From Eledone cirrhosa (taxonomy: Eukaryota), in assembly GCA_964016885.1 (NCBI GenBank), contig CAXHJY010001224.1, forward strand, positions 1 to 38,356: a stretch of 38,356 nucleotides of DNA, read 5' to 3'. This document shows positions 1 through 38,356 of this stretch, in pieces (the stretch's first letter is position 1; each line of letters starts with the position of its first letter). Below the pieces are notes generated by a model. That model was not told where the DNA came from and did no database searches. It was given only the letters and a program-made list of their open reading frames with translations. Made by a program: the position numbers and the translations under genes.

Positions 1-585
1 CATATTTGTGATCCTTAAGAGAGAATTTAGGCGTCAGAGGGACGTACGGGTTAGTGTACTTTTCTATTTCTAAGCTGGTGACTATATCCTTCCCTACTCT
101 ATTTATGTCATTTAGGGTACTAGAGTGGTCTTTTTGTAGTCTTTGTGTAGTTCCTTATAGATGAATTTGTTATACTCACTCGCGTCCATCTTGTACAGCT
201 TTTTGGTTTTGTCGGAGGTGACGAAGAGGTGCGGGACATTCTTGATCTTAGTTATTAGTGTATCAAGGGACGTTAAGAATGGATTGTTGCATTGGTGTTT
301 CTTTCTGAGCTTAACGTTTTTGATCATTTTCAGCAGGTCCTCTTCAAAGGAGTCCAGTAAGGTGTAGTGCGGTGGGTTTCGGTATGTTTTGAAACCATAC
401 CTCTCTTTGGGTTCAGGAAGGTTACGGGTGTTCTTATCCAGGTGGTATGCCTTCCATCTGACTCACCGTATAAACGAATTAGTAGCGTCCATAGCAGTTT
501 AAGGTAGGTTTTTCTGGTGGGTAAGGGGATACACTTGAGAGACATGGGTAACGGTTGGTTCTCCAAGATAATGGCAAATAAGGTG
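1..585 (-). mobile_element. Decayed Penelope-like element (Naiad-type), N-terminal part of the ORF, running off the left edge
   Basis: Frameshifted minus-strand peptide [18 protein letters not shown]...RRVRWKAY...[11 protein letters not shown]...[13 protein letters not shown]...LFVTSDKTKKLYKM..YNKFIYKELHKDYKK. It is homologous to the peptide at 37200-37480, which leads into a PLE RT. The Naiad assignment comes from recalled motifs. Confidence 0.75.
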
Positions 586-594
586 ATATATATG

Positions 595-860: not shown

Positions 861-3372
<2,512 letters not shown>

Positions 3373-5677: not shown

Positions 5678-6357
<680 letters not shown>

Positions 6358-7010
6358 TGGATGCATTCATGTATATGTGTGTGTCCGCATGTATCTGTGT
6401 GTTTCTAAATATATTGTTAATAACTCCCTCTGGTCGAGTAATCTTTGAAGTGTGGTGACTGCTGGAAAGCTGCCATTACTCATACTTCTCGCCTCCTTCA
6501 CCACCACTTCTACGGCTTCGATATAAATACCCCCTCCGCCTCCGTGGTATTTTCTTCGGGGTTATTAGAGGCTTAGCTCTGTTTCTCGACCGTTATATCG
6601 CGTGACTATCTCCCCCTCCGCCTTTTGGGATTCTTTCTCACGTCGTGTAGACGCGTTCTTGAGGCTAGTAAAATGAGGTATCCTCTTGATAAGTCGGCAG
6701 ACCTCGCAAGGACTCTATATCTTTATGATGTATTGTTTTTCTTTATGCCACGAAACTACGTAGTCGAGGAATCTAGGAGCAGTTTAGGTATGATACATTT
6801 TATTACTAATTATATCTAAATGTTCCTTCTCTCTTCATAATGTATTTTTAACTCTGATACTGGTTCAGTCTGGTTCAACCGGATTGGTCTGTCCCAGTCA
6901 TTCATTGAGCAACATCGGTGAGGTTGGCACCCTTAACTCACGGTTGGGTGTGGATGCATTCATGTATATGTGTGTGTCCGCATGTATCTGTGTGTTTCTA
7001 AATATACTGT

Positions 7011-7012
<2 letters not shown>
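6358..7012 (+). mobile_element. 593-bp non-coding unit with ~62-bp terminal redundancy (retrozyme/pLTR-like monomer)
   Basis: TGGATGCATTCATG...AAATATAYTGTTA is repeated directly at 6358-6419 and 6951-7012; the unit contains a hammerhead motif. Confidence 0.7.
6681..6770 (+). ncRNA. Type I hammerhead ribozyme, U3-A8 core variant, long loop II
   Basis: Stem I TCCTC/GAGGA; core TTGATAA; stem II GT(C)GGCA/TGCCAC; GAA; palindromic helix III ACTACGTAGT; GUC site at 6763-6765. Confidence 0.75.
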
Positions 7013-7052
<40 letters not shown>

Positions 7053-7320
7053 TATACATATATATATATACATATACATATACATATGTATATATATATA
7101 TATATATATACATATACATAGTATTAGTTATACTATTTATGGTTATGTAAACACAAAACCTTAAGCAGTTGTAAGTATTTTACACACACCCTAAATAGTG
7201 GTAGGCAGTAATGTATTACTACCTTATTACCAGTAAGTTAAGTAGCTCAATGTAAAAACATCAGATGATTTACAGAGCAGTTATATGAAATATAAGAATC
7301 AAAGAACTGTTCAAAACATT

Positions 7321-7373
7321 ATTGTGCTTACAGCTGTTTCCTCCAAACCGAGGTTTGGATTCTTCGGAGCAAT
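7321..7373 (-). ncRNA. Type I hammerhead-like motif (CCGAAGA core variant), copy 1
   Basis: Minus strand reads TGCT-CCGAAGA-A-TCCAAACC-TC-GGTTTGGA-G-GAA-ACAGCTGT-A-AGCA; palindromic helix III; GUA site. Confidence 0.65.
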
Positions 7374-8590
7374 TTATTAATGCATGGACAGTTATATGAC
7401 CTCCTTTTCAGCCGAGAGACATACCAATACATATTCAAACATTGATACATATTCAAACATTGTGGGTCAACATTCATTACAGAATTTAGAGTGGCAGTAC
7501 ACACTTCGAGATTACATTTATATTAATAGGTACAGTCAAAAATCAAAGATATAGGTTAAAGTACAACATGAAGATAAGTGGTTATATAGTGCAAATGTTA
7601 TATCTGTGGCACGCATGTGCGTCTTGTTTATATAGTGTGGCAGAGAGATATGTGTGGTAGAGGCACTTAGGTAGGTAAATAAGAGTGTTAGGTTGGTAGA
7701 TCTGGTGGCAAAATCTTTATATGATTGATATAGTCTGTGTGTGGAGAAATATTATAAGCATTAAAGATAGTGCAAGCATTAAAAGTGTTATAAATATTGG
7801 AGATGCACAGCGCAGGGATGTCAAGTAATTCATGTACTTCGGCATTTTCATGGTCAAGGGAGTGTATATTTCGATTATTAATTTAGGGTCTATATTGGGA
7901 CACATTTTAATGGCTAGATATAGAAACCCCAGAGTTACCTCCCCGCATGCATTAACTCCCCTTAGCCACACACACACTTCCGGTATTCAATGGCGTTTCT
8001 CGAAACGTAACAACCTCCTGTATCGAACTAAAGAACACCAGACTACGATCTCTAACTGGATTGTCGTGGATTATGTGAAAGGCATATAATCGAAATATAC
8101 ACTCCCTTGACCATGAAAATGCCGAAGTACATGAATTACTTGACATCCCTGCGCTGTGCATCTCCAATATTTATAACACTTTTAATGCTTGCACTATCTT
8201 TAATGCTTATAATATTTCTCCACACACAGACTATATCAATCATATAAAGATTTTGCCACCAGATCTACCAACCTAACACTCTTATTTACCTACCTAAGTG
8301 CCTCTACCACACATATCTCTCTGCCACACTATATAAACAAGACGCACATGCGTGCCACACATATAACATTTGCACTATATAACCACTTATCTTCATGTTG
8401 TACTTTAACCTATATCTTTGATTTTTGATTGTACCTATTAATATAAATGTAATCTCGAAGTGTGTACTGCCACTCTAAATTCTGTAATGAATGTTGACCC
8501 ACAATGTTTGAATATGTATCAATGTTTGAATATGTATTGGTATGTCTCTCGGCTGAAAAGGAGGTCATATAACTGTCCATGCATTAATAA

Positions 8591-8643
8591 ATTGCTCCGA
8601 AGAATCCAAACCTCGGTTTGAAGGAAACAGCTGTAAGCACAAT
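8591..8643 (+). ncRNA. Type I hammerhead-like motif, inverted copy 2
   Basis: Same motif on the plus strand with one G>A change in stem II (TTTGAAG). Confidence 0.6.
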
Positions 8644-8682
8644 AATGTTTTGAACAGTTCTTTGATTCTTATATTTCATATA

Positions 8683-9475
<793 letters not shown>

Positions 9476-9513
9476 ATATGAAATATAAGAATCAAAGAAC
9501 TGTTCAAAACATT

Positions 9514-9566
9514 ATTGTGCTTACAGCTGTTTCCTCCAAACCGAGGTTTGGATTCTTCGGAGCAAT
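9514..9566 (-). ncRNA. Type I hammerhead-like motif, copy 3
   Basis: Identical to 7321-7373. Confidence 0.65.
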
Positions 9567-10749
9567 TTATTAATGCATGGACAGTTATATGACCTCCTTT
9601 TCAGCCGAGAGACATACCAATACATATTCAAACATTGATACATATTCAAACATTGTGGGTCAACATTCATTACAAAATTTAGAGTGGCAGTACACACTTC
9701 GAGATTACATTTATATTAATAGGTACAATCAAAAATCAAAGATATAGGTTAAAGTACAACATGAAGATAAGTGGTTATATAGTGCAAATGTTATATGTGT
9801 GGCACGCATGTGCGTCTTGTTTATATAGTGTGGCAGAGAGATATGTGTGGTAGAGGCACTTAGGTAGGTAAATAAGAGTGTTAGGTTGGTAGATCTGGTG
9901 GCAAAGTCTTTATATGATTGATGTAGTCTGTGTGTGGAGAAATATTATAAGTATTAAAGATAGTGCAAGCATTAAAAGTCTTATAAGTATTGGAGATGCA
10001 CAACGCAGGGATGTCAAGTAATTCATGTACTTCGGCATTTTCATGGTCAAGGGAGTGTATATTTCGATTATATGCCTTTCACATAATCCACGACAATCCA
10101 GTTAGAGATCGTAGTCTGGTGTTCTTTAGTTCGATACAGGAGGTTGTTACGTTTCGAGAGACGCCATTGAATACCGGAAGTGTGTGTGTGGCTAAGGGGA
10201 GTTAATGCATGCGGGGAGGTAACTCTGGGGTTTCTATATCTAGCCATTAAAATGTGTCCCAATATGGACCCTAAATTCTATGGTGAGGTGCACCTTCCAA
10301 GAGAGACTTTTAAAGCATAAAGTGCACTAACTATAGAGTAGTTTAACTAAATTATGCTGAAGGTGATCATATTATTATTAAGGTGGATTAACCCATCTTA
10401 AGGTGCTACAAATGGAAATTATAGATGATGAGCGAGGATTCTAAATTAATGATCTCTGTGGTTGTAGTCTGCTCATATGACCAGGCGCGGTGATTGCAGG
10501 ATTGCTTCAGGACCCAATGATCTCTGGTAAGATCTGGGTCATCGCTTGCTACATTGGATGTCGAAAGATAATCGTCCCCAGGCAGGCCAAAGGGTGTGTG
10601 TAAAATACTTACAACTGCTTAAGGTTTTGTGTTTACATAACCATAAATAGTATAACTAATACCTATATATATATATCTATACATATATATATATATATAT
10701 ATACATATATAGTTTTAATATAGAATATATATAATTACATATATATACA

Positions 10750-12848: not shown

Positions 12849-12878
<30 letters not shown>

Positions 12879-12881
<3 letters not shown>

Positions 12882-13753
12882 TGAAAAAGTTTGTCCTCAT
12901 CAGTGGCCATCCAACCGTCGTAGGCATTTCGTCGCATTAGAGGCCATATACCTCAGGTTGGTGCGAGCAACGGCTAAAAAAAAGTCGTTGGGACACGTAA
13001 ATAAGGGGCACGCTAGGGTAACCGAACAAAATGGTTTAAGCAGCAGAAAGTAATGAAGAAGGAAACAAGTCCCAGATTTCTATGAATATAAATTCGGTGA
13101 AATCGTGAACGAGAGAATAAAGACCATCAAACCTGGTTGAAATGTGAGCAAGGAAGGAATTTCGCACAGGTCTAACGGGAGGAAGAAGGGGTCTGGTCTG
13201 CGAATTCGGTAAACATAAGTTCTGTGAAGTCGCAGACGAGAGAGAGAAAAAAAAATTCATACCGGCTTGGCCAAGTGCCCGCGAGAAAAGGAATACGGAC
13301 AGGTCAAACGGGAAGAAAGGGGAGGAGGAGAGGTAGTGACAGAGAGTGAGTGAATGAAAGGTGAGGAAGAGGCTAACAGAGAGAGAGACTGCTAGAAAGG
13401 GTAAAGACACAAAGAACGAAACAGACTGGTGGCAGCAGAGGAAAAATATATATGTAAATATGATAATAATGGAGCTGCGGCGCTGCAAATGGGTTACATA
13501 TGAAAAAGTTTGTCCTCATCAGTGGCCATCCAACCGTCGTAGGCATTTCGTTGCATTAGAGGCCATATACCTCAGGTTGGTGCGAGCAACGGCTTAAAAA
13601 AAGTCGTTGGGACACGTAAATAAGGGGGACGCTAGGGTAAACGAACAAAATGATTTAAGCAGCAGAAAGTAATGAAGAAAGAAACAAGTCCCAGATTTCT
13701 ATGAATATAAATTCGGTGAAATCGTGAACGAGAGAATAAAGACCATCAAACCT
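12879..13753 (-). repeat. Partial tandem repeat, 619-bp unit, about 1.4 copies
   Basis: ATGAAAAAGTTTGTCC starts at 12881 and 13500; the second copy ends at GACCATCAAACCT (13753). Confidence 0.9.
12896..12961 (-). ncRNA. Candidate hammerhead with permuted strand order (second copy at 13515-13580)
   Basis: Minus strand: CCAACC-TG-AGGTAT-A-TGGCC-TCTAATGCGA-C-GAA-ATGCCT-ACGAC-GGTTGG-AT-GGCCA-CTGATGA-G. All core nucleotides, stem I (TGGCC/GGCCA) and stem III (AGGTAT/ATGCCT) are present; stem II is only 1 bp. Confidence 0.45.
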
Positions 13754-14278: not shown

Positions 14279-14404
14279 GTAGGAGGTGAGTTTTATTGTA
14301 GTACAATAAAGCAATGCAGATATCGGATAAGAAGCACTCTACAGTTTGTGGGACTGGAGTATGCATAATATAAGATCAAAAGATGGTTAAAGGAGTTCCA
14401 TATA

Positions 14405-14471
14405 TTTTATTATGCGCATTTCAAAAACAAACATCATCAAGCAATAATATTTGTGTTTTCATCAGATAAAA
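14405..14471 (-). ncRNA. Type I hammerhead ribozyme, canonical core
   Basis: Stem I TTTTAT/ATAAAA; CTGATGA; ~15-bp stem II AAACACAAATATTATT/GATGATGTTTGTTTTT with G-U wobbles only on this strand; GAA; palindromic helix III ATGCGCAT; AUA site. Confidence 0.85.
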
Positions 14472-14500
14472 CAGGAGAACATGATATGAAGGCTAAAAAA

Positions 14501-17500
14501 CACTCTGATTTGCCTATCTGCTGGGTCATTTCTATTTTTAGATATTATTCTAATTTCTATGTTGTCTATGTTACCGTCATGTTGTTGTCTAGCATGTTCG
14601 TATAGTACTGACCCGTTTTTTCGTCCTTTTAGTTCCCCCTGTGTTGGTCTATCTTTTCACCTATGCTACGAGCTGTCTCACCTATGTATGTTGTTGTCAT
14701 GTTTCTGCAAGTACCCTCTGTACATCTTATGCTATAGACTACGTTTCTAGTTTTACAGTTTATCCGGCGGTTCACCTTACATATGATACATTTCCTATTG
14801 GTACAGTGGGTTTTCTTAAAAGGGTAGGTTTTGCTGATCAGGGATTTTATGGTGGTTCCTGGATTTTCTACCACCTTTATTTTTAAGTGGGTCTTTCTCA
14901 GGGCCTTTCTACACTGGTTAGCTAATTTCACTCCAGGGGTAGAGTCCACAAACATGACACTCTGGTATCTCTGGTTGTCGTACCATGAGGTGGCTTTCCC
15001 TATCTTATGTCTAGCCCTATCTAAGCTATTCCATGATTTGCTCCTGTATAATGTGCAAATTCCTTTCATGTCCAGTTCTATGAGGGTCTTATACTTTTCC
15101 ATGGCTCCTTCGTATACTCTGACTCTGTCTCTTTGGTTGTAGCCAGAGAACTACATGCGGTTGATGAAGTGTTGGATGTGTCATTCCATTTCTGTTGGGT
15201 CGCACATGCGGGACACATTCTTCATCACTTGTACCAAATCTGCGATCAGAATATTAAACTTAGCACTACTGGACATTGATGAGTTTTTGAGTATCAGGTA
15301 TTTGGAGGCCATGGGTTTAGCATAGTGTGAGTGGAGAATTTGGGCTCTCTCGTCTATAGTGTTAATCCAGAGTTCTGAGTCTAATACAGGTAGTCTATTG
15401 TTAGGGTGTTTGGAAGGGAAGTCGATAGTTACAGTTATACTCTGGTGTATGGAATTAGCTATCTGCTGGATGCTTTCCATCGTGCTACGTTCTAAATCAA
15501 ACTTGTTAGTGGTCTCTAGTGGGGGTGTTATAACTATATTGATATCGTCTACATAACGAGAGTACATGATGAGGTCTATGGAGCTCTCATTAAGGAGATC
15601 TTTAAGTCTCCTTTCCCACCATACCATGAAAAGGTTGGCAACATCACCAGCTATGCTGACGCCGATGGCTGCTCCCTCATTTTGGGTGTAGATCTTCTCG
15701 TTGAACTTAAATATGTGGCCCTTGAGGGTAGTTTTGATACTAGCCCCTATTGCATGTGCGCCATCTTTCTTACCTGATCATTGTTTTGGTGGGTCCGTAT
15801 AGCTTTGGTCCACCCAATCCACCTTCCCATGTGAGTCTTTTTTGCCATTGAGGTTATGGTGGGGGTCTACCTCTTATAGGTCTACTAGGGCAGAAACATC
15901 TAAGGTCATGGCTGTCTAGGTAGTCAGTGTCGTAGGTAAGTCTAAGTAGGAAGCCCAGTTCGTCTGTGTCGACGTCGCAGAACTCCACCTCACTCTCAAT
16001 GATCATCTCCACACATCTTTTCACAGCAAAATCAATGTTAATGGATGGGTACAGTGACACCACATCCATGCTGCCTATTATGCAGTTGGATAGGCTCCTG
16101 TTTTTGTTGCACTCACTGATTCTGCTGAGGAGGTCCTCTGTACTGTCACATACATCTGGGGACATCTTGATTATGGGGCGTATAACCATTGAGAGGAAGT
16201 AGGAGATCCTGTAGTTGCTAGCTATATTAGCTCCGCATAGGGGTCTTGTTGGTGGTCCTGTTGTCGGGTCGTCGACTGTCTTGTGGTCTTTGCGGAGCCC
16301 ATACAAGGGTGATATGCCATTGTTAGACGCCTGGAAGTTGTTGGCAGTGCGTCTGCTTGGCTTTAGGATGTCAGTCCACATCATCATGTGAGCGTTGAGG
16401 ATTTTCTCTCTCCCATCGTGTGTCTGTTGTGCAATTTCGCTCGTGTTGGTGATGTGGGGTTGCATAGCCTCGATGTAGTTCGGCATGCTATCTATTGACA
16501 TTCTACCAGACTTATCCGTGGGTAGACATACTACCTCACCATCCCTTGTGCGCTGCTTGAGGCTAACCATGCCTTTTACAGGTTTCCTCCCAAGTTGTTG
16601 GGCCTCTGGTCTGCTCTGTCTCTTTGTATACCTGTCTACTATTTGTCTAATCTTATTTCTAGCTATGGCGAACTGTGCCTCTGTCTCGTCATCTATTTGT
16701 TGTGGTATGCAAACTCTTTTATTAAAGGGTAACCTCGTAGGATAGATATTACCCATCTTATATGTTTTGTCAGCTGGGTTGAAAAATAGTTTCTCTAAGG
16801 GGTTGTCATTATATCTATCGTCATAGTTGTGTGTGTTGCTATTATTGTTATCATGGTGGTTGTTGTTGTTTCTATCATTAGCATTATTATTATTGTTATG
16901 ATTGCTAGATGTATTGTTGTTTACTTCGCCGTTATTGTTGTTGTTACTGTTATTTCTACCATTGTGGTTGTTACTTTTATTATGTTTCTTGTTTTTGTTG
17001 TGTCTATCATTGATGTTGCTACATGTATTGTTTCCATTATTACCACTGTGGTTATTGTTGTTGTTCGTATTGTTACCGTTATTACTACTGTGGTCGCTGC
17101 TGCTGTGTCTGTGGTTAATGTTTCTATTATTATTATTATTGTGGTTGTTGTTGTTCTGTCTATCGCTAGTATTATCACTACTGTGGTCGCTGCTGCTGTG
17201 TCTGTGGTTAATGTTTCTATTATTATTATTATTATTGTGGTTGTTGTTGTTCTGTCTATCGCTAGTATTATTACCATTATCACTATTTCTCACTTTCCTG
17301 CTATTGTTATAGTTATGGCTGTTATTTCTATACTCAGAGTTATTGTTTATATTACTACTACCGTTATTATTGTTGTTGTTGTTGTTTACCTTTGCATTCC
17401 AACGTATTTTTGTGAAACACTTTTCCAGCTCCGTTTTGCACTCCATAGGGTTAATCTTTTTGTAGATGGCAAATTTTGGTGGTAGCCGCAGGATTTGTTG

Positions 17501-18300
17501 TTCTTGTTCACTGATTAAAGTGTTCCCATAGATATTTACTGTGTGGTCATTGGTAAATTCTTCCGGTAGTTTTACATCAGTCATACGGATATTGTCGATG
17601 TTATCTGGGTATTTTTGAGAATATTCGATTTTCCTTTCTTGTAGTTTTTTCTTAATCATCCATTCTAATTTCTTATTGAAATGCCCATTGCAGTCGTTTC
17701 GAGCGTATTTCGTTTCACGTCGGATGACGCTCGTGAAGTTATCTCTCTCGTTTGCTGTGATGAGATCTCGGATTTCCTTACCGTTAATGCGTTTTTGTCT
17801 GTAAAGTGCGTTGACTTTTGTGTATGTTGTTCTTTTCATATTAACTGTTATTGTGTGTTTTAGTCGTTCGGCTTGTGTTTTGTTCAATAATAAATTATTT
17901 ACTTGTTTTGATATGTTTGTTGTGTATGTTTTGGAGGAAACAGTGTTTTAAGAAGCGGATTTGTTCTGTTGTTATTGTAGTTTTTATATAACAGAAAACA
18001 GTGTCTTTCAATAACCTTTCAGCTTGGCACAAGTTAATGCCATAGCGGCGATGAATTAGTTTCGCGAGGTTTTTTATATGAAATCGTGTGTCGAAACAAA
18101 TATTGTTATACTTGGGGAGGGTCATATTTGTGTAATATTGCCAGAATTAATAACAGAACACACTGACTGTTTGGTTGGTTTTCGCTTCTCGCTTCTGTGT
18201 CTTTCATATCGGTAATCTAACTTACTCGGTCCTCAATGTTGCCATTGACTGACCGACAGTCAAAAATAATACAGATACAATATAGACACAAACACATATA
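14501..18300 (-). mobile_element. Decayed Penelope-like retroelement (RT + C-terminal GIY-YIG endonuclease)
   Basis: Across broken ORFs 17895..18125, 15854..17887, 15181..15627 and 14629..15102: PTDKSGR, LYGLRKDHK, PTRP, GSMDVVSLYPSI, YTQNEGAAIG, RYVDDI, LPVLD, HYAKPMAS, CTNRKCIIC, NVVYSIRC...YIGETARS. Its ends match 31201-31400 and 31831-31898. Confidence 0.92.
16800..17385 (-). repeat. In-frame Asn-rich (AAC/AAT) trinucleotide tract inside the PLE ORF
   Basis: About 190 Asn-rich codons with no stop, including a duplicated SDRQNNNNHNNNNNRNINHRHSSSDHSS block. Confidence 0.9.
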
Positions 18301-18850
<550 letters not shown>

Positions 18851-21800
18851 TATATCTATCTATCTATCTAAGGCGGGTAAAATTCCCGAGATCCATGGAC
18901 GAGTTCTCTCCAGCGGTCTCTGTCCCTCATTATCGCTGCCATGTCCTGCGTCTCCAACAGACCAGTGTCTGTCCTTAGGGCATCAACATATGTTAACCTT
19001 GGTCTTCCTCTTCCAGTGTGTCCATGTAGGGGCTCCCAAAGGAGCACGGAGTGCAATGTCAACTCTGGATGTCGGTGAGCATGTCCAGCCAACCTCAGTC
19101 TCCTCTGTGTCACTTTTGAGCTGACTTTTGGGAGGCTCCCATACAGCTCTGAGTTTTTCATCCTCAGTGTATACTGATTAATGTTCAGAGCCATCCTCAG
19201 CATTCTCGTGTAGCACCCATCCACCATCTGAGTGAGTCTCTTGGTCAGTGTCCAAGTCTCAGACCCATACAGCAGCACAGACTCCACTACAGCAATGAAG
19301 AGGCGGATTTTCAGGTCTCTACGAAGGTCCGACTTCCACACCGATCTCAAGCTGTGGCACGCCGCCCAGGCCTTGCTCTTCCTCTCAACCACATCATCTT
19401 CCGTATTCCCAATCTTTGCTCCCAAATACAGGAAGTCCTCAACCAATTCCAGCGGCTTCCCGCCTACATTAGTGATCCCCTCTGGCTTCTCAACATTCTC
19501 TACCAGATATTTTGTTTTAGTCTCATTCATTCTCAGCCCCACACTCATCGACACAGTCTCAACCTCCCGCATCAAATCCTCTGCCTCCTTCACTGTATTT
19601 GTCACCAAAACTATGTCGTCGGCAAATTCAGCATCCGATACCTTTTTCGCCCCAACTCTCCTGCTCTGAGCCGGTGCTACAGTAAAGCCAGAGTCCTGGT
19701 GTTTCTCCAGTGCAAGGCGCATACAATAGTCCACTACGATGATAAAAAGGTAGGGAGCCAATGTATCTCCCTGGAGCACTCCAGCCAGTATCTCAAAGAA
19801 CTCTGTCATCCCATCAGGTGTAATGACTTGGGCTTTGGTGTTGGTGTAGAGCAGTGATATCAGGTCCACTATCCTCTTGGGGATTCCATAAGCCTGTAAG
19901 ATCTTCATCAGGCAGTAACGGTCCACAGAATCAAAGGCCTTCCTAAAGTCAATGAAAACCATGACCGCAGGAAGGCACTTTGCTCTAGCTCCCTCTAATA
20001 TCCTCCTCAGCATCAGGATGTGACTGGTGGTTGATCTACCCTCTCTGAAGCCGTTCTGGTTGTCCCTGAGCTTCTTCTCCATCTCAGGCTGGATCCTGTT
20101 AAGAATCATCCTGTTGAGGGTCTTTGCCACAAGTGACGTCAGTGAGATCCCCCGGTAGTTGTTGGTGTTAGAGAGATCTCCCTTCTTTGGCACTGGGACG
20201 ATGTTACTGATCCTCCACTGATTCGGGGCAACTCCTTTCTCCAGTGCCCCGTTACAGAACCCCAGGATGATATCATCAAAATCACACCACTTCATCACCT
20301 CTGATGCTACTCCATCTTCTCCATGAGCCTTGCCCTCCTTGATCTTCTTCTTGGCTCTCTGAAGCTCCTCTCTGGTGAAGGGCTCTGTCTCAACATCCAG
20401 TTCCTCAAACAGCCGCCTGATCTCCCCAGTGCTCTGGGCTGTGGAGGGTGGCTCTCCTAGTAGGGTCCTAAAATGGTCTAGCCATTTCCTCTTCCTATCC
20501 TCGGGCCCCGTTCCCTGGATCTGACTCGAACACCTTTTCTTCCTCCCTGTGATCTCGTTGATGATCATCCAGCTCTCCTTACATCCAGATCTGTCAACCG
20601 CTCTCTCCACACTTCTGATCTTCTCTATCAGTGCCTCCTCTCTGACCTCAGTGTAAGCGGTACAGAGCTCTTCCCTCATCACCTCCACAGTCTCCATCCT
20701 CTCCTCCGTAGGATCAGCATAGAATTGGTCCCTGGCAGCTTTCAGGTGTTCTCTGGCTGCACACACTTTTGGGTCTGCAGAGCTGACGTGCTTCCCTTTG
20801 TTCTTTTTCCTCGGCACCAGGGTTTCACTTGCTTTCGCCACTGCATTGGTGAAGTGCCCGTACCTCCTCGTCACACTCTCCTCAGTCCATCCAATCTCTC
20901 TCTCCTCTGACTCTCCACACAGAGCACTAAACCTGTTTCTCACTTCCACTGTGAACCTCTCCTGTAGCTTATCATCTTCCTTGAAAGCTCCCCAGTCATA
21001 GATTGTTCTCCGGGGCTGAGCCTTGCTCTTTCTTAAGCTCACGCGGACCTCACTCATAACAAGCCGGTGGTCACTACCCAGTGTACTGAAATAGCTGTAT
21101 GGTTCCGTGTTCAGAACACTATTCCGCCACTTTTTCCTCACCAGAATGAAATCAATCTGGGACTTGGACAGGTGCATATCTGAGATGTAGGTCCACATCT
21201 TCCCCAGATTCTTCCTAAACCTTAGGTTGGTCGCCATCAAGTTCGCCTCCAGCAGGGTGTCTCTCAGTAGTCTTCCATTTCGGTTGGTGTTGTTATGGAA
21301 GTACCAGCAAGGATCTTCACTGCCCTCCTTACTCAGATGTGCATTGAAGTCCCCCAAAACAAGCAGGATATTGTGTGCCTGAGTGGTGTTGACAGCTCTA
21401 CACACTTCCTCATGGAACTCCTCGGCATTCACATCACTGTCCCCCTCGGTTGGACTATAGGCTGAGATGACTGTCAGTCTTGGGTTTCCATTGAAGGTCA
21501 CCCTCAACACTCGCGGGGAGATAGGCATTATTTCCCTCACCAACAGATTGGTTTTTGCACTGAACACAAAACCCACTCCTCCTACTGCAGCATTTGTTGT
21601 GTTCTTCACTGCCGATGTAGTGATGAGCTGGCTCTTCCTCCCGATCATCACACTCCTCACGGGCTCATCGTGTAGAATCCTGTGTTCTTGGATCGCAAGT
21701 ATCTGTATACCACTCTCCTCGAACAGATGTCCCAACTCCTCTCTCTTCTCCAGCGTTCGAATAGTCCTCACATTCAAAGTGCCCATTTTGATGGCTCTTC

Positions 21801-22177
21801 TGCAGGACAAAACTGCATTCTTTATATTTGTCTCAGAGACAGCTGATCCATCATCCACTGGCCCTCTCTGTGGCTCTAAGCCAGCAGAGTCATAACGACC
21901 AGGCTGCTCCTTGACAGTGTAATTAGGGGCTCTAACCCTAGTGCTGTTAGATCGACTCTCCATATTTCTTTTCAATGGCTGACAATACCTTACCGGCGCC
22001 ACTCGAATAAGGTAGTTATTTAACCCATAAATGGAGCCCTAACAGGTACTACCACCCCGGGCCAGGGCAGACCTGGGAGTCATGACAACTAAGGGGTAAC
22101 TCCATATTCCCCACATCTCCTGAACTCCCGAACTGGAGCCTTGCCACTGGATGTAGTTTAATGTCATACCCAAGACA
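18851..22177 (-). mobile_element. Apparently full-length RTE-clade non-LTR retrotransposon
   Basis: About 210-bp 5' UTR, a single EN+RT ORF, and a stop codon running straight into a (TAGA)n tail; flanked on both sides by TA microsatellite. Confidence 0.9.
18868..21963 (-). CDS. APE endonuclease-reverse transcriptase polyprotein (RTE), uninterrupted
   Basis: EN motifs GTLNVRT, LAIQEHR, YSPT, LGDFNA, QIDFIL, SDHRLV; RT motifs [36 protein letters not shown]; RTE-type C-terminus GRGRPRLTY. The first ATG is at 21963 (the track start at 22002 is GTG). Confidence 0.93.
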
Positions 22178-22215
22178 TATACGTATATATATATACATAT
22201 ATATATACGTATATA

Positions 22216-22763: not shown

Positions 22764-22878
22764 TAAGTTGAAAAAAATGAAAACGAAATTTCATTTCTCA
22801 CTCTTAGTATACCACTTACTTAAATGTAAGTATGTATGTATACGTACATACATATATGTATACAGACGTACAGTAGCA

Positions 22879-22928
<50 letters not shown>

Positions 22929-23839
22929 TGTACACATATGCATACAGGTACACATACATATATGCATGCATCAGTTTAGCCGACGTTTATTATAACGCCT
23001 GCTTTGTTCGTTTGTTTGTCAACAAATCGAACAGCCTGAATTTATGCCATACGGTGTTAAGGCAACCACGTCACCTTTTTGTTCAACACTTACACAGGAA
23101 CGATGTACTAGTTTCAAGCTTGTTAGCTATCATCAGCACCGTTTACCCATCTGCCAGATAGTTGAACGTTCGAAAGTATATACTTTCCTTATGAAAATTA
23201 ACGGCTGAGCAGCCTAATTTGCATATTGAGTGAGTTAAATCGGTCAGGCATACCGAAAACGATAAGTTGAAAAAATGAAAACGAAATTTCATTTCTCACT
23301 CTTAGTATGGCACTTACTTAAATGTAAGTATGTATGTATACGTACATACATATATGTATACAGACGTACCATAGCATGCATATATATATATATACACATC
23401 TGCATACAGGTACACATACATATATGCACGCATCAGTTTAGCCGACGTTTATTATAACGCCTGCTTTGTTCGTTTGTTTGTCAACAAATCGAACAGCCTG
23501 AATTTATGCCATACGGTGTTAAGGCAACCACGTCACCTTTTTGTTCAACACTTACACAGGAACGATGTACTAGTTTCAAGCTTGTTAGCTATCATCAGCA
23601 CCGTTTACCCATCTGCCAGATAGTTGAACGTTAGAAAGTATATACTTTCCTTATGAAAATTAACGGCTGAGCAGCCTAATTTGCATATTGAGTGAGTTAA
23701 ATCGGTCAGGCATACCGAAAACGATAAGTTGAAAAAAATGAAAACGAAATTTCATTTCTCACTCTTAGTATGGCACTTTCTTAAATGTAAGTATGTATGT
23801 ATACGTACATACATATATGTATACAGACGTACCGTAGCA

Positions 23840-23884
<45 letters not shown>

Positions 23885-24787
23885 GCATACAGGTACACAT
23901 ACATATATGCACGCATCAGTTTAGCCGACGTTTATTATAACGCCTGCTTTGTTCGTTTGTTTGTCAACAAATCGAACAGCCTGGATTTATGCCATACGGT
24001 GTTAAGGCAACCACGTCACCTTTTTGTTCAACACTTACACAGGAACGATGTACTAGTTTCAAGCTTGCTAGCTATCATCAGCACCGTTTACCCATCTGCC
24101 AGATAGTTGAACGTTCGAAAGGATATACTTTCCTTATGAAAATTAACGGCTGAGAAGCCTAATTTGCATATTGAGTGAGTTAAATCGGTCAGGCATACCG
24201 AAAACGTTAAGTTGAAAAAATGAAAACGAAATTTCATTTCTCACTCTTAGTATGGCACTTACTTAAATGTAAGTATGTATGTATACGTACATACATATAT
24301 GTATACAGACGTACCGTAGCATGCATATATATATATATACACATCTGCATACAGGTACACATACATATATGCACGCATCAGTTTAGCCGACGTTTATTAT
24401 AACGCCTGCTTTGTTCGTTTGTTTGTCAACAAATCGAACAGCCTGAATTTATGCCATACGGTGTTAAGGCAACCACGTCACCTTTTTGTTCAACACTTAC
24501 ACAGGAACGATGTACTAGTTTCAAGCTTGTTAGCTATCATCAGCACCGTTTACCCATCTGCCAGATAGTTGAACGTTCGAAAGTATATACTTTCCTTATG
24601 AAAATTAACGGCTGAGCAGCCTAATTTGCATATTGAGTGAGTTAAATCGGTCAGGCATACCGAAAACGATAAGTTGAAAAAAATGAAAACGAAATTTCAT
24701 TTCTCACTCTTAGTATGGCACTTACTTAAATGTAAGTATGTATGTATACGTACATACATATATGTATACAGACGTACCGTAGCATGC

Positions 24788-24821
<34 letters not shown>

Positions 24822-25259
24822 GCATACAGGTACACATACATATATGCACGCATCAGTTTAGCCGACGTTTATTATAACGCCTGCTTTGTTCGTTTGTTTG
24901 TCAACAAATCGAACAGCCTGGATTTATGCCATACGGTGTTAAGGCAACCACGTCACCTTTTTGTTCAACACTTACACAGGAACGATGTACTAGTTTCAAG
25001 CTTGTTAGCTATCATCAGCACCGTTTACCCATCTGCCAGATAGTTGAACGTTCGAAAGGATATACTTTCCTTATGAAAATTAACGGCTGAGAAGCCTAAT
25101 TTGCATATTGAGTGAGTTAAATCGGTCAGGCATACCGCAAACGATAAGTTAAAAAAAATGAAAACGAAATTTCATTTCTCACTCTTAGTATGGCACTTAC
25201 TTAAATGTAAGTATGCATGTATACGTGAATACATATATGTATACAGACGTACAGTAGCA

Positions 25260-25345
<86 letters not shown>

Positions 25346-25414
25346 TATACACATATGCATACAGGTACACATATATATATGCACGCATCAGTTTAGCCGA
25401 CGTTTATTGTAACG
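22764..25414 (-). repeat. Tandem array of ~462-499-bp units (5 full + 1 partial), retrozyme-like
   Basis: Units start at 22764, 23263, 23725, 24208, 24670 and 25145; length differs mainly by an internal (TA)n; one hammerhead motif per full unit. Confidence 0.95.
23099..23143 (-). ncRNA. Type I hammerhead ribozyme (also 23561-23605, 24044-24088, 24506-24550, 24981-25025)
   Basis: Minus strand: AACGGTG-CTGATGA-T-AGCT-AACA-AGCT-T-GAA-ACTAGT-A-CATCGTT; 7-bp stem I with a G-U pair, palindromic minimal helix III, GUA site, U-U at 10.1/11.1. Confidence 0.85.
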
Positions 25415-25446
25415 TATACATACATACTTACATATATATATGTATA

Positions 25447-25497
<51 letters not shown>

Positions 25498-25879
25498 GTA
25501 TATATATATATATATGTATATATATGTATATATATGTATATATATATATATGTATATATATGTATATATAAATATATATGTATATATGTATATATATTTA
25601 TATATGTATATATATTTATATATGTGTATATATGTATATATATGTGTATATATGTATATATATGTATATATATATATGTATATATATATATGTATATATG
25701 TATATGTATATATATGTATATATATGTATATATATGTATATATATGTATATATACGTATATATATATATATACATATATATACATACATATACATACATA
25801 TATATACATATATACATATATATACATATATACATATATATACATACATATACATACATATATATACATATATACATAT

Positions 25880-27765
25880 GGATGTATATATAATGTATTT
25901 TGCAATACACTTTATGCTTAATTAAAAGCATTTTGAAGACCGTAAGCTATTGTTTTAAAGTAGTGACGAATTCACTCACTTTGATCTCAGCAAACAGGGG
26001 AGATAAGCCGACATGACATGTTTCGCTTTTGTTGAAGCTTATCAAGGCCAACTACCCCACCTGTCTACTGAGATCAATGATGTTATAATCTTATAGAGGT
26101 CTAGTAAATAATCAGGAGCTGATTATGCAGAGCGGTTGTTGGTCAGGCAGAAATTAAAAATTAGAATTGGAGCTCTGAAATAGCAATATATATATGGATG
26201 TATATATAATGTATTTTGCAATACACTTTATGCTTAATTAAAAGCATTTTGAAGACCGTAAGCTATTGTTTTAAAGTAGTGACAAATTCACTCACTTTGA
26301 TCTCAGCAAACAGGGGAGATAAGCCGACATGACATGTATCGCTTTTGTTGAAGCTTATCAAGGCCAACTACCTCACCTGTCTACTGAGATCAATGATGTT
26401 ATATTCTTATAGAAATCTAGTAAATAATCAGGAGCTGATTATGCAGAGCGGTTGTTGGTCAGGCAGAAATTAAAAATTAGAATTGGATCTCTGAAATAGC
26501 AATATATATATGGATGTATGTATAATATATTTTGCAATACACTTTATGCTTAATTAAAAGCATTTTGAAGACCGTAAGCTATTGTTTTAAAGTAGTGACA
26601 AATTCACTCACTTTGATCTCAGCAAACAGGGGAGATAAGCCGACATGACATGTTTCGCTTTTGTTGAAGCTTATCAAGGCCAACTACCTCACCTGTCTAC
26701 TGAGATCAATGATGTTATATTCTTATAGAAATCTAGTAAATAATCAGGAGCTGATTATGCAGAGCGGTTGTTGGTCAGGCAGAAATTAAAAATTAGAATT
26801 GGAGCTCTGAAATAGCAATATATATATGGATGTATATATAATGTATTTTGCAATACACTTTATGCTTAATTAAAAGCATTTTGAAGACCGTAAGCTATTG
26901 TTTTAAAGTAGTGAAAAATTCACTCACTTTGATCTCAGCAAACAGGTGAGATAAGCCGACATGACATGTTTCGCTTTTGTTGAAGCTTATCAAGGCCAAC
27001 TACCCCACCTGTCTACTGAGATCAATGATGTTATATTCTTATAGAAATCTAGTAAATAATCAGGAGCTGATTATGCAGAGCGGTTGTTGTTCAGGCAGAA
27101 ATTAAAAATTAGAATTGGAGCTCTGAAATAGCAATATATATATGGATGTATATATAATGTATTTTGCAATACACTTTATGCTTAATTAAAAGCATTTTGA
27201 AGACCGTAATCTATTGTTTTAAAGTAGTGACAAATTCACTCACTTTGATCTCAGCAAACAGGGGAGATAAGCCGACATGACATGTTTCGCTTTTGTTGAA
27301 GCTTATCAAGGCCAACTACCCCACCTGTCTACTGAGATCAATGATGTTATATTCTTATAGAAATCTAGTAAATAATCAGGAGCTGATTATGCAGAGCGGT
27401 TGTTGGTCAGGCAGAAATTAAAAATTAGAATTGGAGCTCTGAAATAGCAATATATATATGGATGTATATATAATGTATTTTGCAATTTTTAATTTCTGCC
27501 TGACCAACAACCGCTCTGCATAATCAGCTCCTGATTATTTACTAGATTTCTATAAGAATATAACATCATTGATCTCAGTAGACACGTCGGGTAGTTGGCC
27601 TTGATAAGCTTCAACAAAAGCGAAACATGTCATGTCGCCTTATCTCCCCTGTTTGCTGAGATCAAAGTGAGTAAATTTGTCACTACTTTAAAACAATAGC
27701 TTTCGGTCTTCAAAATGCTTTTAATTAAGCATAAAGTGTATTGCAAAATAATTATATATACATCC
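25880..27765 (-). repeat. Tandem array of 316-bp units (5 full + stub) ending in an inverted copy, retrozyme/pLTR-like
   Basis: GGATG unit starts at 25880, 26196, 26512, 26828, 27144 and 27460; an inverted near-full unit spans about 27484-27765. Confidence 0.95.
25981..26077 (-). ncRNA. Type I hammerhead ribozyme, U3-A8 variant, long stem I (repeats every 316 bp; inverted copy near 27569-27665 on +)
   Basis: Minus strand: TTGATCTCAGTAGACAGG...GGCC-TTGATAA-GCTT-CAACAA-AAGC-GAA-ACAT-GTC-ATGT-C-GGCT...CCTGTTTGCTGAGATCAA; GUC site; the 18-bp distal stem pairs fully (with G-U) only on the minus strand. Confidence 0.85.
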
Positions 27766-27951
27766 ATATATATACATATATACATATATATACATCCATA
27801 TATATACATATATACATATATATACATACATATACATATATATATATACATATATATACATACATATATACATACATACACATATACATATATATACATA
27901 TATATACATATATATACATATATATACATATATATACATACATATATATAC

Positions 27952-28008
<57 letters not shown>

Positions 28009-28134
28009 TATACATATATACACATATATAAATATATATACATATATAAATATATATACATATATACATATATATATATATACATATATATACATATATA
28101 TACATATATATACAATATATATATATATATATAT

Positions 28135-28165
<31 letters not shown>

Positions 28166-28414
28166 TACATATATATACATATATATATACATATATATAC
28201 ATATATATATACATATATATACATATATATATACATATATATACATATATATATACATATATATACATATATATACATATATATATACATATATACATAT
28301 ATAAACATATATATACATATATATACATATATATACATATATATACATATATATACATATACATATATATACATATATATATATACATATATATACATAT
28401 ATATATATATATAC

Positions 28415-28467
<53 letters not shown>

Positions 28468-28522
28468 CATATATATTCATATACATATATATATATATAT
28501 CTACATATATATATACATATAC

Positions 28523-28554
<32 letters not shown>

Positions 28555-28596
28555 ATATATACATATACATATACACATACATATATACATATACAT

Positions 28597-28631
<35 letters not shown>

Positions 28632-28728
28632 TACGTATACATATATATACATATACATATATATATATATACATATACATATATATATATATACATATAC
28701 ATATATATATACATATATATACATATAC

Positions 28729-28760
<32 letters not shown>

Positions 28761-28788
28761 ATATATACATATACATATATATATATAC

Positions 28789-28846
<58 letters not shown>

Positions 28847-28864
28847 TTATATACATATATATAT
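27766..28864. repeat. Degenerate (TA)n/(TATAC)n microsatellite
   Basis: Low-complexity tract. Confidence 0.95.
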
Positions 28865-29991
28865 ATAGTAGAATAATCGAGTATCGAAAAATCGGCGCAC
28901 GAGTTCACGATAAACAAAATTCGAGATGAGCGGCAGAAGGCTCCATAATTCAGATAAATCAGAGCTATAACTATCGTTAAAATACCGTCACACGTAGAAT
29001 ATGTCTACAATCAACCAAACGACCGAAAAATTGCGATATGGAAGATTCGGGACACTCAGATAAATTATCAATAAATCAATAAATCAAATGAATGTAAAAA
29101 GCATACCCGGACCCACTAGAGAGATGGTATATCTAACTTCCTGGGTTTCTGTAAATCCTTAAACCATCCTCTATCAGCTCACACAAAAATATAAGACTTA
29201 CAGACGACGGGGGACTGGAGTTTACAACTTCAACGAGCTTTAGTCCGAACGAATGAAAAGACAAGACCCAGGCTGAAAATACGCACATGGATTTCAGCAA
29301 GGGAGATAACCTTTATATCCGCAAAAAATATTCGGGAAAATGTGGAATAACACATATCGAATAAGAGTGCTCAATAGACATGTTAAAATAAAAAGGAGCT
29401 ATTCATCATTTAATAGAATCGACAAAAAATGAACAATAAAATTAACTGGTCAATAGCTAGGTCTAGAGCTAAATATAGTAGAATAATCGAGTATCGAAAA
29501 ATCGGCGCACGAGTTCACGATAAACAAAATTCGAGATGAGCGGCAGAGGGCTCCATAATTCAGATAAATCAGAGCTATAACTATCGTTAAAATACCGTCA
29601 CACGTAGAATATGTCTACAATCAACCAAACGACCGAAAAATTGCGATATGGAAGATTCGGGACACTCAGATAAATTATCAATAAATCAATAAATCAAATG
29701 AATGTAAAAAGCATACCCGGACCCACTAGAGAGATGGTATATCTAGCTTCTTGGGTTTCTTTAAATCCTTAAACCGTCCTCTATCAGCTCACACAAAAAT
29801 ATAAGACTTACAGACGGCGGGGGACTGGAGTTTACTTCTTCAACGAGCTTTAGTCCGAACGAATGAAAAGACAAGACCCAGGCTGAAAATACGCACATGG
29901 ATTTCAGCAAGGGAGATAACCTTTATATCCGCAAAAAATATTCGGGAAAATGTGGAATAACACATATCGAATAAGAGTGCTCAATAGACAT
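28865..29991. repeat. Partial tandem repeat, 610-bp unit, about 1.85 copies, unknown family
   Basis: TAGTAGAATAATCGAG at 28866 and 29476; the copies differ by a handful of substitutions. Confidence 0.93.
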
Positions 29992-31126: not shown

Positions 31127-31200
31127 CATATGTATACATATATATACATATATACACATATATAAATATATATACATATATACATATATATATATATACA
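29992..31200. repeat. Degenerate (TA)n microsatellite
   Basis: C-, G- and C-variant blocks similar to 33700-34660. Confidence 0.95.
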
Positions 31201-31899
31201 TATTGTTATATTTGGGGAGGGTCAAATTTGCGTAATATTGCCAGAATTAATAACAGAACACACTCACTGTTTGGTTGGTTTTCGCTTCTCGCTGTCTTTT
31301 ATATATATATATCTGCGATCTAACTTACTCGGTCCTCAATGTTGCCATTGACTGACCGGCGGTCAAAAATAATACAGATACAATATAGACAAACACATAT
31401 ATATATAGTTTACATAATTTACATAAATCTTTCGTTGCACATCTGCAACATCGTCAGTGGTGTTATATTCATTGTTCCTCCTGTTGTGTTGTATGTCTAC
31501 GCCATTTTTTTTGTTCAGTCTGTCTATATATTTATTTATTTATTTGCTTGTTTGTTTATCTTATTTTATTTTGTCTTCTTTGCGCATGCGTTTGCGTGTG
31601 TGTATAGTGTTATGTGTGATGTGTGACTAGTGTGTATAGTGTTGTGTCTGCTGGGTGACTAGTGTGTGTTTATGTGCTTGTGTATGTATTTATTTATCTT
31701 ATTTTATTTTATTTAATTTACTTATTTATTTATACTTCTCTCAGGTCAGTGTTGTTTGTTTGGGTGTTGTTGTTGTTCCACTCATTCTTTCTGTTTAGCT
31801 TTGGTCTTCTAATTTCTATTTCACTGGCCTCTCTGATTTGCCTATCTGCTGGGTCATTCCTATGTTTAGATATTATTCTAATTTCTATGTTGTCTACGC
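31201..31899 (-). mobile_element. PLE pLTR/tandem-junction fragment of the 14501-18300 family
   Basis: Minus strand runs from the GIY-YIG C-terminus ([26 protein letters not shown]) through a UTR into the 5' leader and the (L/M)TLPKYNN ORF start shared with 18100-18300. Confidence 0.85.
31421..31460 (-). ncRNA. Degenerate hammerhead-like motif in the pLTR
   Basis: CA-CTGACGA-T-GTTGCA-GATG-TGCAAC-GAA-AGATTT-A-TG; good core and stem II, weak stem I, imperfect helix III palindrome. Confidence 0.5.
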
Positions 31900-31955
31900 T
31901 ATATATATACATATATATACATATATATACATATATATACATATATATAATATAT

Positions 31956-33302: not shown

Positions 33303-33454
33303 CGTATATATATATATACATTATATATATATATTACGTATATATATATATACATAATATATATATATACGTATCTATATATATACATATATATATATAT
33401 ACGTATATATATATACATATATATATATACGTATGTATATATATATATACATAT
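31900..33454. repeat. Degenerate (TA)n microsatellite
   Basis: Includes a TACG-variant block similar to 36570-37195. Confidence 0.95.
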
Positions 33455-33532
33455 AACGAAGGAAATGTGGTAAGGAACCAGGTGGACCATAACGCACCAA
33501 AGTACTCAATACTTGGGGTAGTAGAGTGGGTA

Positions 33533-33669
33533 ATAGGAACCAGTAAGATCCCGACAGCTGAGCTCAAGCCGTTTCGACGGCTAATTCTGGACTAAACAAA
33601 TATTTTTTAGTCCAGAATTAGCCGTCGAAACGGCTTGAGCTCAGCTGTCGGGGTCTTACTGGTTCCTAT
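33533..33669. repeat. Near-perfect 137-bp palindrome (fold-back)
   Basis: Arms 33533-33596 and 33606-33669 are reverse complements with one mismatch; the centre AAATATTT is also palindromic. Confidence 0.95.
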
Positions 33670-37140: not shown

Positions 37141-37197
37141 GTATATATACATATATATATATACGTATATATATATATATACATACCATATATACAT

Positions 37198-38356
37198 CTA
37201 AACAAAGCAGATCGGAATATATGTATGATTTCAATACTTACAAGAATCCACCACACAACTTTTTACTTGAAGACTTCGAGAAAGACCTTTTTAATTTAAT
37301 TAAACACCTCAAATTTAAAAAGTATAAAATCCGTCTTTCAAAAGGACCTTGATTCTACCCTATTGGACCTAAAAAAGTCTAAAAAAATCCATGTCCACTC
37401 GGACAAAACTGGTAACTTGTATCATATGGATATTGAACATTATAATGAGTTCATATATAAAGAACTCAGAAAAAATTATAAAAAATCTAATAATGTGTCA
37501 CTCACCAACATCAACAACAAAACACACAACATAGTAAAAAAACTAAATATTGAAGATAGAACTGAACCTTTGGCATTGAAAAGACCACACTTCAACCTGA
37601 AAGATCACAAATCTAACTTTAACTCTAATCCTTCTATTAGACTTATATGTCCCTCCAAATCAGATATTGGAATAATTAGCAAAAAAATTTTAGATAGAGT
37701 CATCCCACAAATAAGAAAATACGTTATTTTACCACTCTGGAAAACACCTCCCAGGTAATTAATTGGTTTTAAAAATATTAGGTGTAAATCTTCTGCTTCT
37801 TTCCTACAATTTGATATAGATAATTACTATTCTTCTATATCACCCATACTCCTGAACAAAGCATTAATATTTGCTAAAAATAGATCTAATTTAACTTCGG
37901 ATGACATTAACATTATTACACATGCTAGACAAACACTTATTGAATTTCAGAATGAATACTGGGACCAGAACACATACAGTAATCTTTTTGATATTACTAT
38001 GGTTCAAGCGATTCCGCCCAAATTACTGATCTTGTGGGCCTCTTCTCCTTTTCAACATAAATGCCTCTTTTCCCCACCTCAAAGGTGGTTTATATCGTGA
38101 TGACTGTCTTCTTCTTTCTAACAACCTTAGCCTTTCAGAAATCGAAAAAAACAAAAAGCATATTAGAACTTTCCTTAAAGACTATTATAATCTTAATATT
38201 ACTTTTGAAAAAACAGTAAAGTAGTAAATTTCCTAGATATAACTTTAGATTAGCTACGGGTATATACCAACCTTACCATAAACCTAACCAAAACTTACAT
38301 TACATACACTCACAATCTAATCACCCTAAATCTATCCTTAAAAACCCTTTGCATAT
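37198..38356 (+). mobile_element. Decayed Penelope-like element (Naiad-type) RT region, running off the right edge
   Basis: Frameshifted peptides: [97 protein letters not shown]. Confidence 0.88.

Follow-up and report, generated by a model that had tools for sequence, protein, structure and literature searches.

Metazoan non-LTR retrozymes are described as low-GC, non-coding tandem units of 150-450 bp carrying one type I hammerhead each (PMC7229834; bioRxiv 2026.07.22.740005). According to the same sources, retrozyme families consist of many heterogeneous copies, mostly in arrays of no more than seven units, and co-occur with Penelope-like elements (PLEs). An origin of retrozymes from PLEs has been argued, and one of nine predicted Xenopus retrozyme dimers was cleaved in vitro (bioRxiv 2026.07.22.740005). 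Formation of arrays by reverse transcription around a circle is a proposal (PMC7229834), as is the birth of satellites via local multiplication after insertion (bioRxiv 2026.07.22.740005). Mobilization of animal retrozymes by PLEs, and array formation through circle copying versus later local amplification, stand as points that have been proposed and not shown.

PLE insertions are partial tandems, often with an inverted 5'-truncated copy that leads to inverted repeats, and show a bias for (TA)n (Craig et al. 2021, PMC8557442). Non-autonomous elements of Chlamys, for example MRC1, form multicopy head-to-tail insertions (PMC8557442). In AT-rich DNA, both strands are cut, and extended from the same RNA start site, by a purified PLE protein that primes without RNA homology to the cut DNA and does not need hammerhead cleavage (PMC11167929). 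With respect to the ribozyme, hammerheads with a U3-A8 pair are natural and active in vitro according to Perreault et al. 2011, who cite earlier work (PMC3088659), and approximately 1300 matches were reported for Schistosoma, mostly single minimal PLE motifs (Cervera and de la Pena 2014, PMC4209133). A double-hammerhead arrangement has also been described for metazoan type I motifs (PMC4209133).

The window analysed here is a 38,356-nucleotide stretch from Eledone cirrhosa (contig CAXHJY010001224.1). It contains, at a single locus, a tandem array of five exact 316-bp units (25880-27459) arranged head-to-tail and ending in an inverted copy. The features of the locus are as follows, with the hammerhead positions 3, 8, 14, 17 and 1.2 given in hammerhead numbering.

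25415..25879, no strand: left TA-rich microsatellite flank, putative target
25876..25891, no strand: left end within the unit's own (TA)n tract, 4-nt overlap with the flank, putative priming site
25880..26195, minus strand: 316-bp unit, copy 1; U3 at 26045, predicted cleavage after C17 at 26010
26196..26511, minus strand: copy 2; U3 at 26361, A14U at 26338, predicted inactive
26512..26827, minus strand: copy 3; U3 at 26677, C17 at 26642
26828..27143, minus strand: copy 4; U3 at 26993, C17 at 26958, top HH9 match (32 bits)
27144..27459, minus strand: copy 5; U3 at 27309, C17 at 27274
27245..27341, minus strand: hammerhead domain of copy 5 (register identical in every copy)
27341-27324 paired with 27262-27245, minus strand: 18-bp distal stem of copy 5, extending helix I
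within copy 5, minus strand: stem II of 4 bp with a 6-nt loop, proximal stem I of 4 bp
27285-27275, minus strand: helix III of copy 5, near-palindromic, 11 nt
27460..27486, minus strand: partial sixth unit, first 27 bases, stopping at the inversion junction
27484..27486, no strand: 3-nt overlap common to the forward and inverted arms
27484..27765, plus strand: inverted truncated copy of 282 bp, unit offsets 283 to 1
within the inverted copy, plus strand: hammerhead with U3 at 27601, C17 at 27636 and a stem I mismatch at 27638
27754..27806, no strand: right end at the unit's own (TA)n tract, like the left end, 9-nt overlap with the flank
27766..28864, no strand: right TA-rich microsatellite flank, C-rich on the plus strand like the proximal left flank

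TRF analysis of the window reports 25870-27486 with a period of 316, 5.1 copies, 98% matches and 0% indels, and indels are absent across all 1580 bases of the forward units. Thirteen of 316 columns vary among the forward copies, with pairwise differences of 4-7, and the inverted copy differs from the forward majority by 5 substitutions and one deleted base (offset 16). The array has a GC content of 0.34 and its units are non-coding; no open reading frame of at least 120 amino acids is found inside the array, where frames running through TA repeats occur at the edges only. The inversion junction sits in unique sequence. Both array ends fall inside microsatellite, where a target-site duplication cannot be delimited, and the right junction is spanned by a duplicated block of 32 nt. 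The proximal flanks are C-rich on the plus strand at both ends and do not mirror each other. The 30-40 nt tail that is an optional feature of PLEs is absent at the array, both ends of which stop in the (TA)n tract.

Each forward unit encodes on its minus strand a type I hammerhead motif in which U3-A8 replaces C3-G8, together with GAAA and a GUC cleavage site. The stems I, II and III bordering the core are 4, 4 and 4 bp long, helix I is open, and each of the 12 conserved positions in the core is either retained or compensated. The motif is intact in copy 1 and in the consecutive copies 3, 4 and 5, and the core is broken in copy 2, whose hammerhead is predicted to be inactive owing to A14U. The distal stem is paired at 18 of 18 positions in the five forward copies and at 17 of 18 in the inverted copy, and contains two G-U pairs that form only on the minus strand. 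A sequence-only reading of this DNA had proposed five exact-period 316-bp units plus an inverted copy, a type I hammerhead with U3-A8 core and GUC site in each unit, an 18-bp distal stem needing minus-strand G-U pairs, a core mutation in copy 2 (GAAAC to GAUAC) and a stem I mismatch in the inverted copy, which is G1.2C. All of these were borne out.

Among 3000 dinucleotide-shuffled units, 51 match the descriptor and one does so with all three stems of at least 4 bp. Rfam gives no match at gathering score anywhere in the window. All six copies align with the Hammerhead_HH9 model (RF02275), scoring 27.6-32 bits (E 4.7e-5 to 1.2e-3) where its cut-off is 52 bits, and follow it closely in stem II, loop 2 and core. 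The array differs from this family in its sub-threshold score and in a proximal helix I of 4 bp instead of 6; helix I can be drawn as 4 bp or as 6 with a U-U mismatch, and loop 2 resembles that of HH9. Given the U3-A8 core and the lack of any Rfam match at threshold, standard scans miss such families. The 141-nt domain folds with a z-score of -6.4, and the monomer with -7.1 on the minus strand versus -3.5 on the plus strand. Two points count against activity: the predicted catalytic fold lies 5.3-5.7 kcal/mol above the minimum-energy fold in the forward copies and 8.3 kcal/mol above it in the inverted copy, and cleavage occurred in just one of the nine Xenopus dimers (bioRxiv 2026.07.22.740005). 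Helix III has a computed energy of +1.0 kcal/mol as a hairpin and -10.5 kcal/mol as a duplex between two copies. Since it is unstable in the former state and stable in the latter, multimers are predicted to cut as double hammerheads, and this dimer-stable helix III matches the arrangement described for metazoan motifs (PMC4209133). Overall, the units carry a hammerhead motif that is predicted to self-cleave.

The U3-A8 core is an already known natural variant, judging by PMC3088659 and PMC4209133. The array shares the exchange of the 3-8 pair with the Schistosoma motifs and differs from them in presenting it in a hammerhead of canonical size within a tandem family. The sequence-only reading had called this exchange covariation. 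The double change relative to the consensus C3-G8 stands, but the three public sequencing runs with contigs on the unit list no alternative allele reaching 5% at position 3 or 8; as far as these runs reflect it, U3-A8 is fixed in the family instead of covarying, and the term was overstated.

The 316-bp unit represents a large family in public sequencing data. Of 24 public runs, 14 (from 11 studies, none of them an RNA run) match parts of the stretch, and four were compared with one unit. Run X1, which may or may not represent the window's species or source, contains 1558 contigs on one unit, 275 of them at 99% identity or more, 446 at 95-99%, 594 at 90-95% and 243 below 90% and down to 80%, and these include the tandem junction. 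Judged from these contigs, the unit is a large heterogeneous family and not a single-locus curiosity, with the proviso that the species of X1 may differ from that of the window. Summed contig depth is not equivalent to copy number and the contigs are too short to reach flanks. The summed depth of X1 is highest next to the (TA)n tract, as 5'-truncated copies would cause, although fragmented contigs confound this signal, and divergent continuations depart from the unit at 27205-27245. Runs X4 and X5 contain 6 and 12 contigs, respectively, one in each self-closing after 316 bases at a depth below 3; this depth is compatible with trace foreign DNA, and neither host range nor horizontal transfer was derived from them. 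Run X17 consists of Hi-C raw reads sampled at about 1 in 100, yields 0 on the unit and carries no weight. No strand-changing joint is listed in the four runs, whose contigs show presence and not absence.

Variation within the family agrees with a functional minus-strand RNA, with trends that are not significant. After leaving out two sites private to the reference unit, there are 19 family-variable sites. None falls in the 12 core positions (0.72 expected) and one falls in the 44-nt domain (2.65 expected, P 0.24); this lone domain variant disrupts a helix III pair and accounts for about 21% of depth. In the distal stem, four of five family variants preserve the minus-strand pair (P 0.19). A pattern scan of metagenomes gave candidates at 5 loci that were rejected, having a GC content of 0.43-0.64, similarity limited to the pattern and, by eye, no helix III, and viral contigs contain 0 exact matches to the 25-nt core stretch.

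The array is likely a member of the known class of non-LTR retrozymes. It resembles them in its unit of 316 bp, head-to-tail order, number of copies, GC content, single type I hammerhead per unit and absence of coding sequence, and differs from published retrozymes in its U3-A8 core. The earlier proposal that the unit size fits metazoan non-LTR retrozymes is supported on the DNA-testable features of size, lack of coding, GC, hammerhead and family. Each part of the locus has been published (non-LTR retrozymes, U3-A8 cores, inverted 5' copies of PLEs and (TA)n targeting), and the inverted retrozyme copy appears to be undescribed: the main texts of PMC7229834 and bioRxiv 2026.07.22.740005 mention neither an inverted terminal copy nor a (TA)n target, and an inverted copy on a retrozyme array was not found in the literature seen, whose supplementary figures could already show inversions. 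A locus with the inversion signature of PLEs, ends at one priming site and one haplotype is of the type that separates the models proposed for animal retrozymes. As its components are all known, it would confirm expectations and not overturn them.

The anatomy of the array is similar to that of Neptune and Naiad PLEs, which share a tandem body, an inverted 5'-truncated copy, inverted ends and a (TA)n target. In contrast to these elements, the array has no open reading frame (RT, GIY-YIG), lacks the tail and is unmatched to the PLEs of the window. Compared with 17 other window segments, PLEs included, the 316-bp unit shows no similarity above shuffles, so that a mobilizing partner is not in view in the window. 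About 37% of the window is TA tract and the (TA)n target is weak on its own. It does not single out PLEs because two ordinary non-LTR retrotransposons with RT domains, 3365-5684 (plus) and 18855-22184 (minus), are also embedded in TA tracts; the inversion does more. The second of these retrotransposons also encodes an endonuclease and has a 1056-codon open frame.

A broken PLE is present at 14280-18300 on the minus strand. It contains RT motifs, a CxxxxCxxC linker, a VVY...YIG endonuclease with flanking Cys/His and an Asn-rich insert, and fits the Neptune/Nematis type when these motifs are read against PMC8557442. A hammerhead-like motif with a long helix II and a palindromic helix III lies at 14465 within it, and end segments related to this PLE recur, joined, at 31199-31905. 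Frameshifted fragments at 1-587 (minus) and 37187-38356 (plus) resemble, by eye, Penelope-type RT genes, and Pfam finds no significant match in them. For the PLE fragments of the window as a whole, Pfam returns one weak RT match (E 0.003), and it names none of their four homologues.

Three further TA-flanked insertions in the window have an orientation switch or inverted ends (7123-8682, 9475-10660 and 33444-33669). The first two belong to one family with opposed arms, and their far ends have 70 nt in common in inverted orientation. Neither arm of 7123-8682 is contained in the other, each having 160-206 nt that are missing from the other, and this insertion fits two separately primed cDNAs better than a fold-back. 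The short one at 33444-33669 ends in a near-perfect hairpin, its arms 67 nt long and one end carrying roughly 80 nt more, and is compatible with either twin-end priming or fold-back. The sequence-only reading had likened the tandem copies and terminal inversion to the integration structure of PLEs. This likeness is supported by PLE anatomy (PMC8557442), by the three insertions and by the broken Neptune-type PLE.

The copies of the array share one haplotype and differ in a star-like manner. Of the family-variable sites that the inverted copy spans, 18 of 18 are identical in all six, even at 27157 and 27176, where their base is the minority one in X1. The differences that the copies do have all lie outside the family-variable sites. 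Among the 13 variable forward columns, 12 are private to one copy and one is common to copies 2 and 3 (offset 178). The inverted copy shows 6 differences in 283 positions and the forward copies 14 in 1580 (P 0.11, not significant). The shared haplotype together with the star-like differences favours one insertion event, and one template copied several times at once would predict this pattern. A rapid burst of local duplication, or assembly errors appearing as private variants, would look similarly star-like.

Combining these observations, we consider it probable that the array is a non-LTR retrozyme placed in a TA microsatellite by PLE machinery in one event. The arrays would be transcribed from the minus strand (step 1), and the multimers would be cut as double hammerheads into monomers that resist more cutting and can be ligated to 316-nt circles (step 2). 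Both strands of (TA)n DNA would be cut by the GIY-YIG endonuclease of a PLE (step 3). The left 3' end would pair with the AU tract of the RNA, and its extension would cover 5.1 units and pass five cleavage sites (step 4), for which a circle or an uncut multimer is needed as template. A second cDNA of 282 nt would start from the right end, primed likewise at this AU tract (step 5), the two cDNAs would be joined head-to-head over 3 nt (step 6) and the copies would afterwards drift by about 1% each (step 7). We infer all seven steps. The extension of both strands by purified PLE protein counts for this sequence of events, and its homology-free and cleavage-independent priming counts against steps 2, 4 and 5 (PMC11167929).

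In its fully specified form, the mechanism has PLE reverse transcriptase/endonuclease priming both (TA)n ends on a 316-nt circular, dimer-activated U3-A8 RNA, rolling 5.1 and 0.9 times, with the cDNAs joined head-to-head; we put this forward tentatively, as a model whose full conjunction of parts is doubtful. A comparable process is known for LINE-1, whose 5' inversions arise by twin priming, with both target ends primed on the RNA and the cDNAs joined head-to-head via microhomology. The array would differ from LINE-1 in that both primers would use the same repeated AU tract, giving matching inverted ends. If the model is true, arrays with inverted ends would be a direct genomic signature of retrozyme circles being mobilized by PLEs through rolling-circle reverse transcription. 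The many tandem and inverted elements of this genome that have TA flanks would then serve as a natural data set on the origin of PLE inversions.

The origin of the inverted copy is the part of this account where two courses compete. Right-end priming at step 5 is somewhat favoured, and fold-back of the cDNA has a little under an even chance at that step. A complete alternative, in which a single event took place but the 3' end of the cDNA paired 60 nt upstream, was copied back to the (TA)n tract and joined the right flank, agrees with the preferred account in everything except step 5, and at the array itself the two cannot be told apart. Taken as a whole this alternative seems rather unlikely. 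It draws on the 3-nt overlap and the short 60-nt loop at the array and on the insertion at 33444-33669, where the left arm of the near-perfect hairpin includes the whole of the right. However, the sole private base of copy 5 (offset 67) is absent from the inverted copy, a change that may be later, and the forward arm ends 27 nt beyond an AU tract, at which a second primer would lie (chance about 27/316 on that side). The arms of 7123-8682, with the sequence that each holds and the other lacks, would moreover need a pre-existing insert under fold-back. Twin-end priming accounts for the structure of the array and fits this neighbouring insertion better than fold-back does. The earlier proposal of rolling reverse transcription with a fold-back therefore holds in part: one event is favoured by the haplotype, and fold-back is not established because twin-end priming also fits.

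Other alternatives change the number of events or the nature of the unit. A PLE could have inserted a single unit with its inverted arm, the forward unit then being multiplied by unequal crossing-over or slippage. Local multiplication is a general route for the expansion of tandem arrays, it also expects a shared haplotype, and the variant common to the neighbouring copies 2 and 3 would suit it; yet with 12 of 13 columns private and no nested groups it requires a burst right after insertion, and zero indels in 1580 bases and the other elements of the window, which are non-integer tandems (462, 610, ~615-619 and 593 bp) as expected of more-than-unit reverse transcription, also count against it, so that we regard it as unlikely. 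Very unlikely, in our estimate, is that the unit represents a pseudo-LTR belonging to an autonomous PLE, in which case the locus would be a 5'-truncated PLE insertion and no independent retrozyme. U3-A8 cores are known from pseudo-LTRs of Schistosoma PLEs (PMC4209133), Xenopus retrozymes match pseudo-LTRs (bioRxiv 2026.07.22.740005), and the depth peak by the (TA)n tract in X1 with the divergent continuations would indicate an end shared with other elements. Against this, there are five full units without intervening coding sequence, helices II and III are canonical in size, unlike those of minimal PLE hammerheads, contigs of X4 and X5 close at exactly 316 bases and X1 contains the tandem junction. 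The least probable alternative, which we give hardly any weight, takes the array for a DNA satellite whose hammerhead is dead or fortuitous and puts the inversion down to misassembly or to some unrelated rearrangement. The missing Rfam match at gathering score, the distance between catalytic and minimum-energy folds and the liability of TA tracts to mis-joins would be in line with it, but the shuffle control (1 in 3000), the complete or compensated set of 12 core positions, the location of the junction in unique sequence, the 6 own differences of the inverted copy and the flanks that are not mirrored speak against it.

Additional tandem elements surround the array. A second tandem array, made up of five units of about 462 bp with a variable TA tract inside, occupies 22764-25414. 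Its minus strand carries a type I hammerhead of the standard C3-G8 kind (cores at 23136, 23598, 24081, 24543 and 25018), in which stem II has a U-U at its base and helix III is a palindrome of 6 nt; on these features the array is likely another retrozyme family. Tandems of more than one unit are located between TA tracts at 6358-7012, 12876-13753 and 28865-29991, with units of about 593, 615-619 and 610 bp, respectively, and the first contains a weak descriptor match with a U3-A8 core at 6686. Rfam miRNA matches in the window were rejected, as they arise from TA tracts or long hairpins. The TA microsatellites contain regularly spaced C or G and can switch orientation within a tract, from G-rich to C-rich on the plus strand near 25750. 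The G-rich TA motif of 25415-25880 and other tracts corresponds to the first 12 bases of the 316-bp unit, and some TA flank sequence might stem from repeated copying of element ends.
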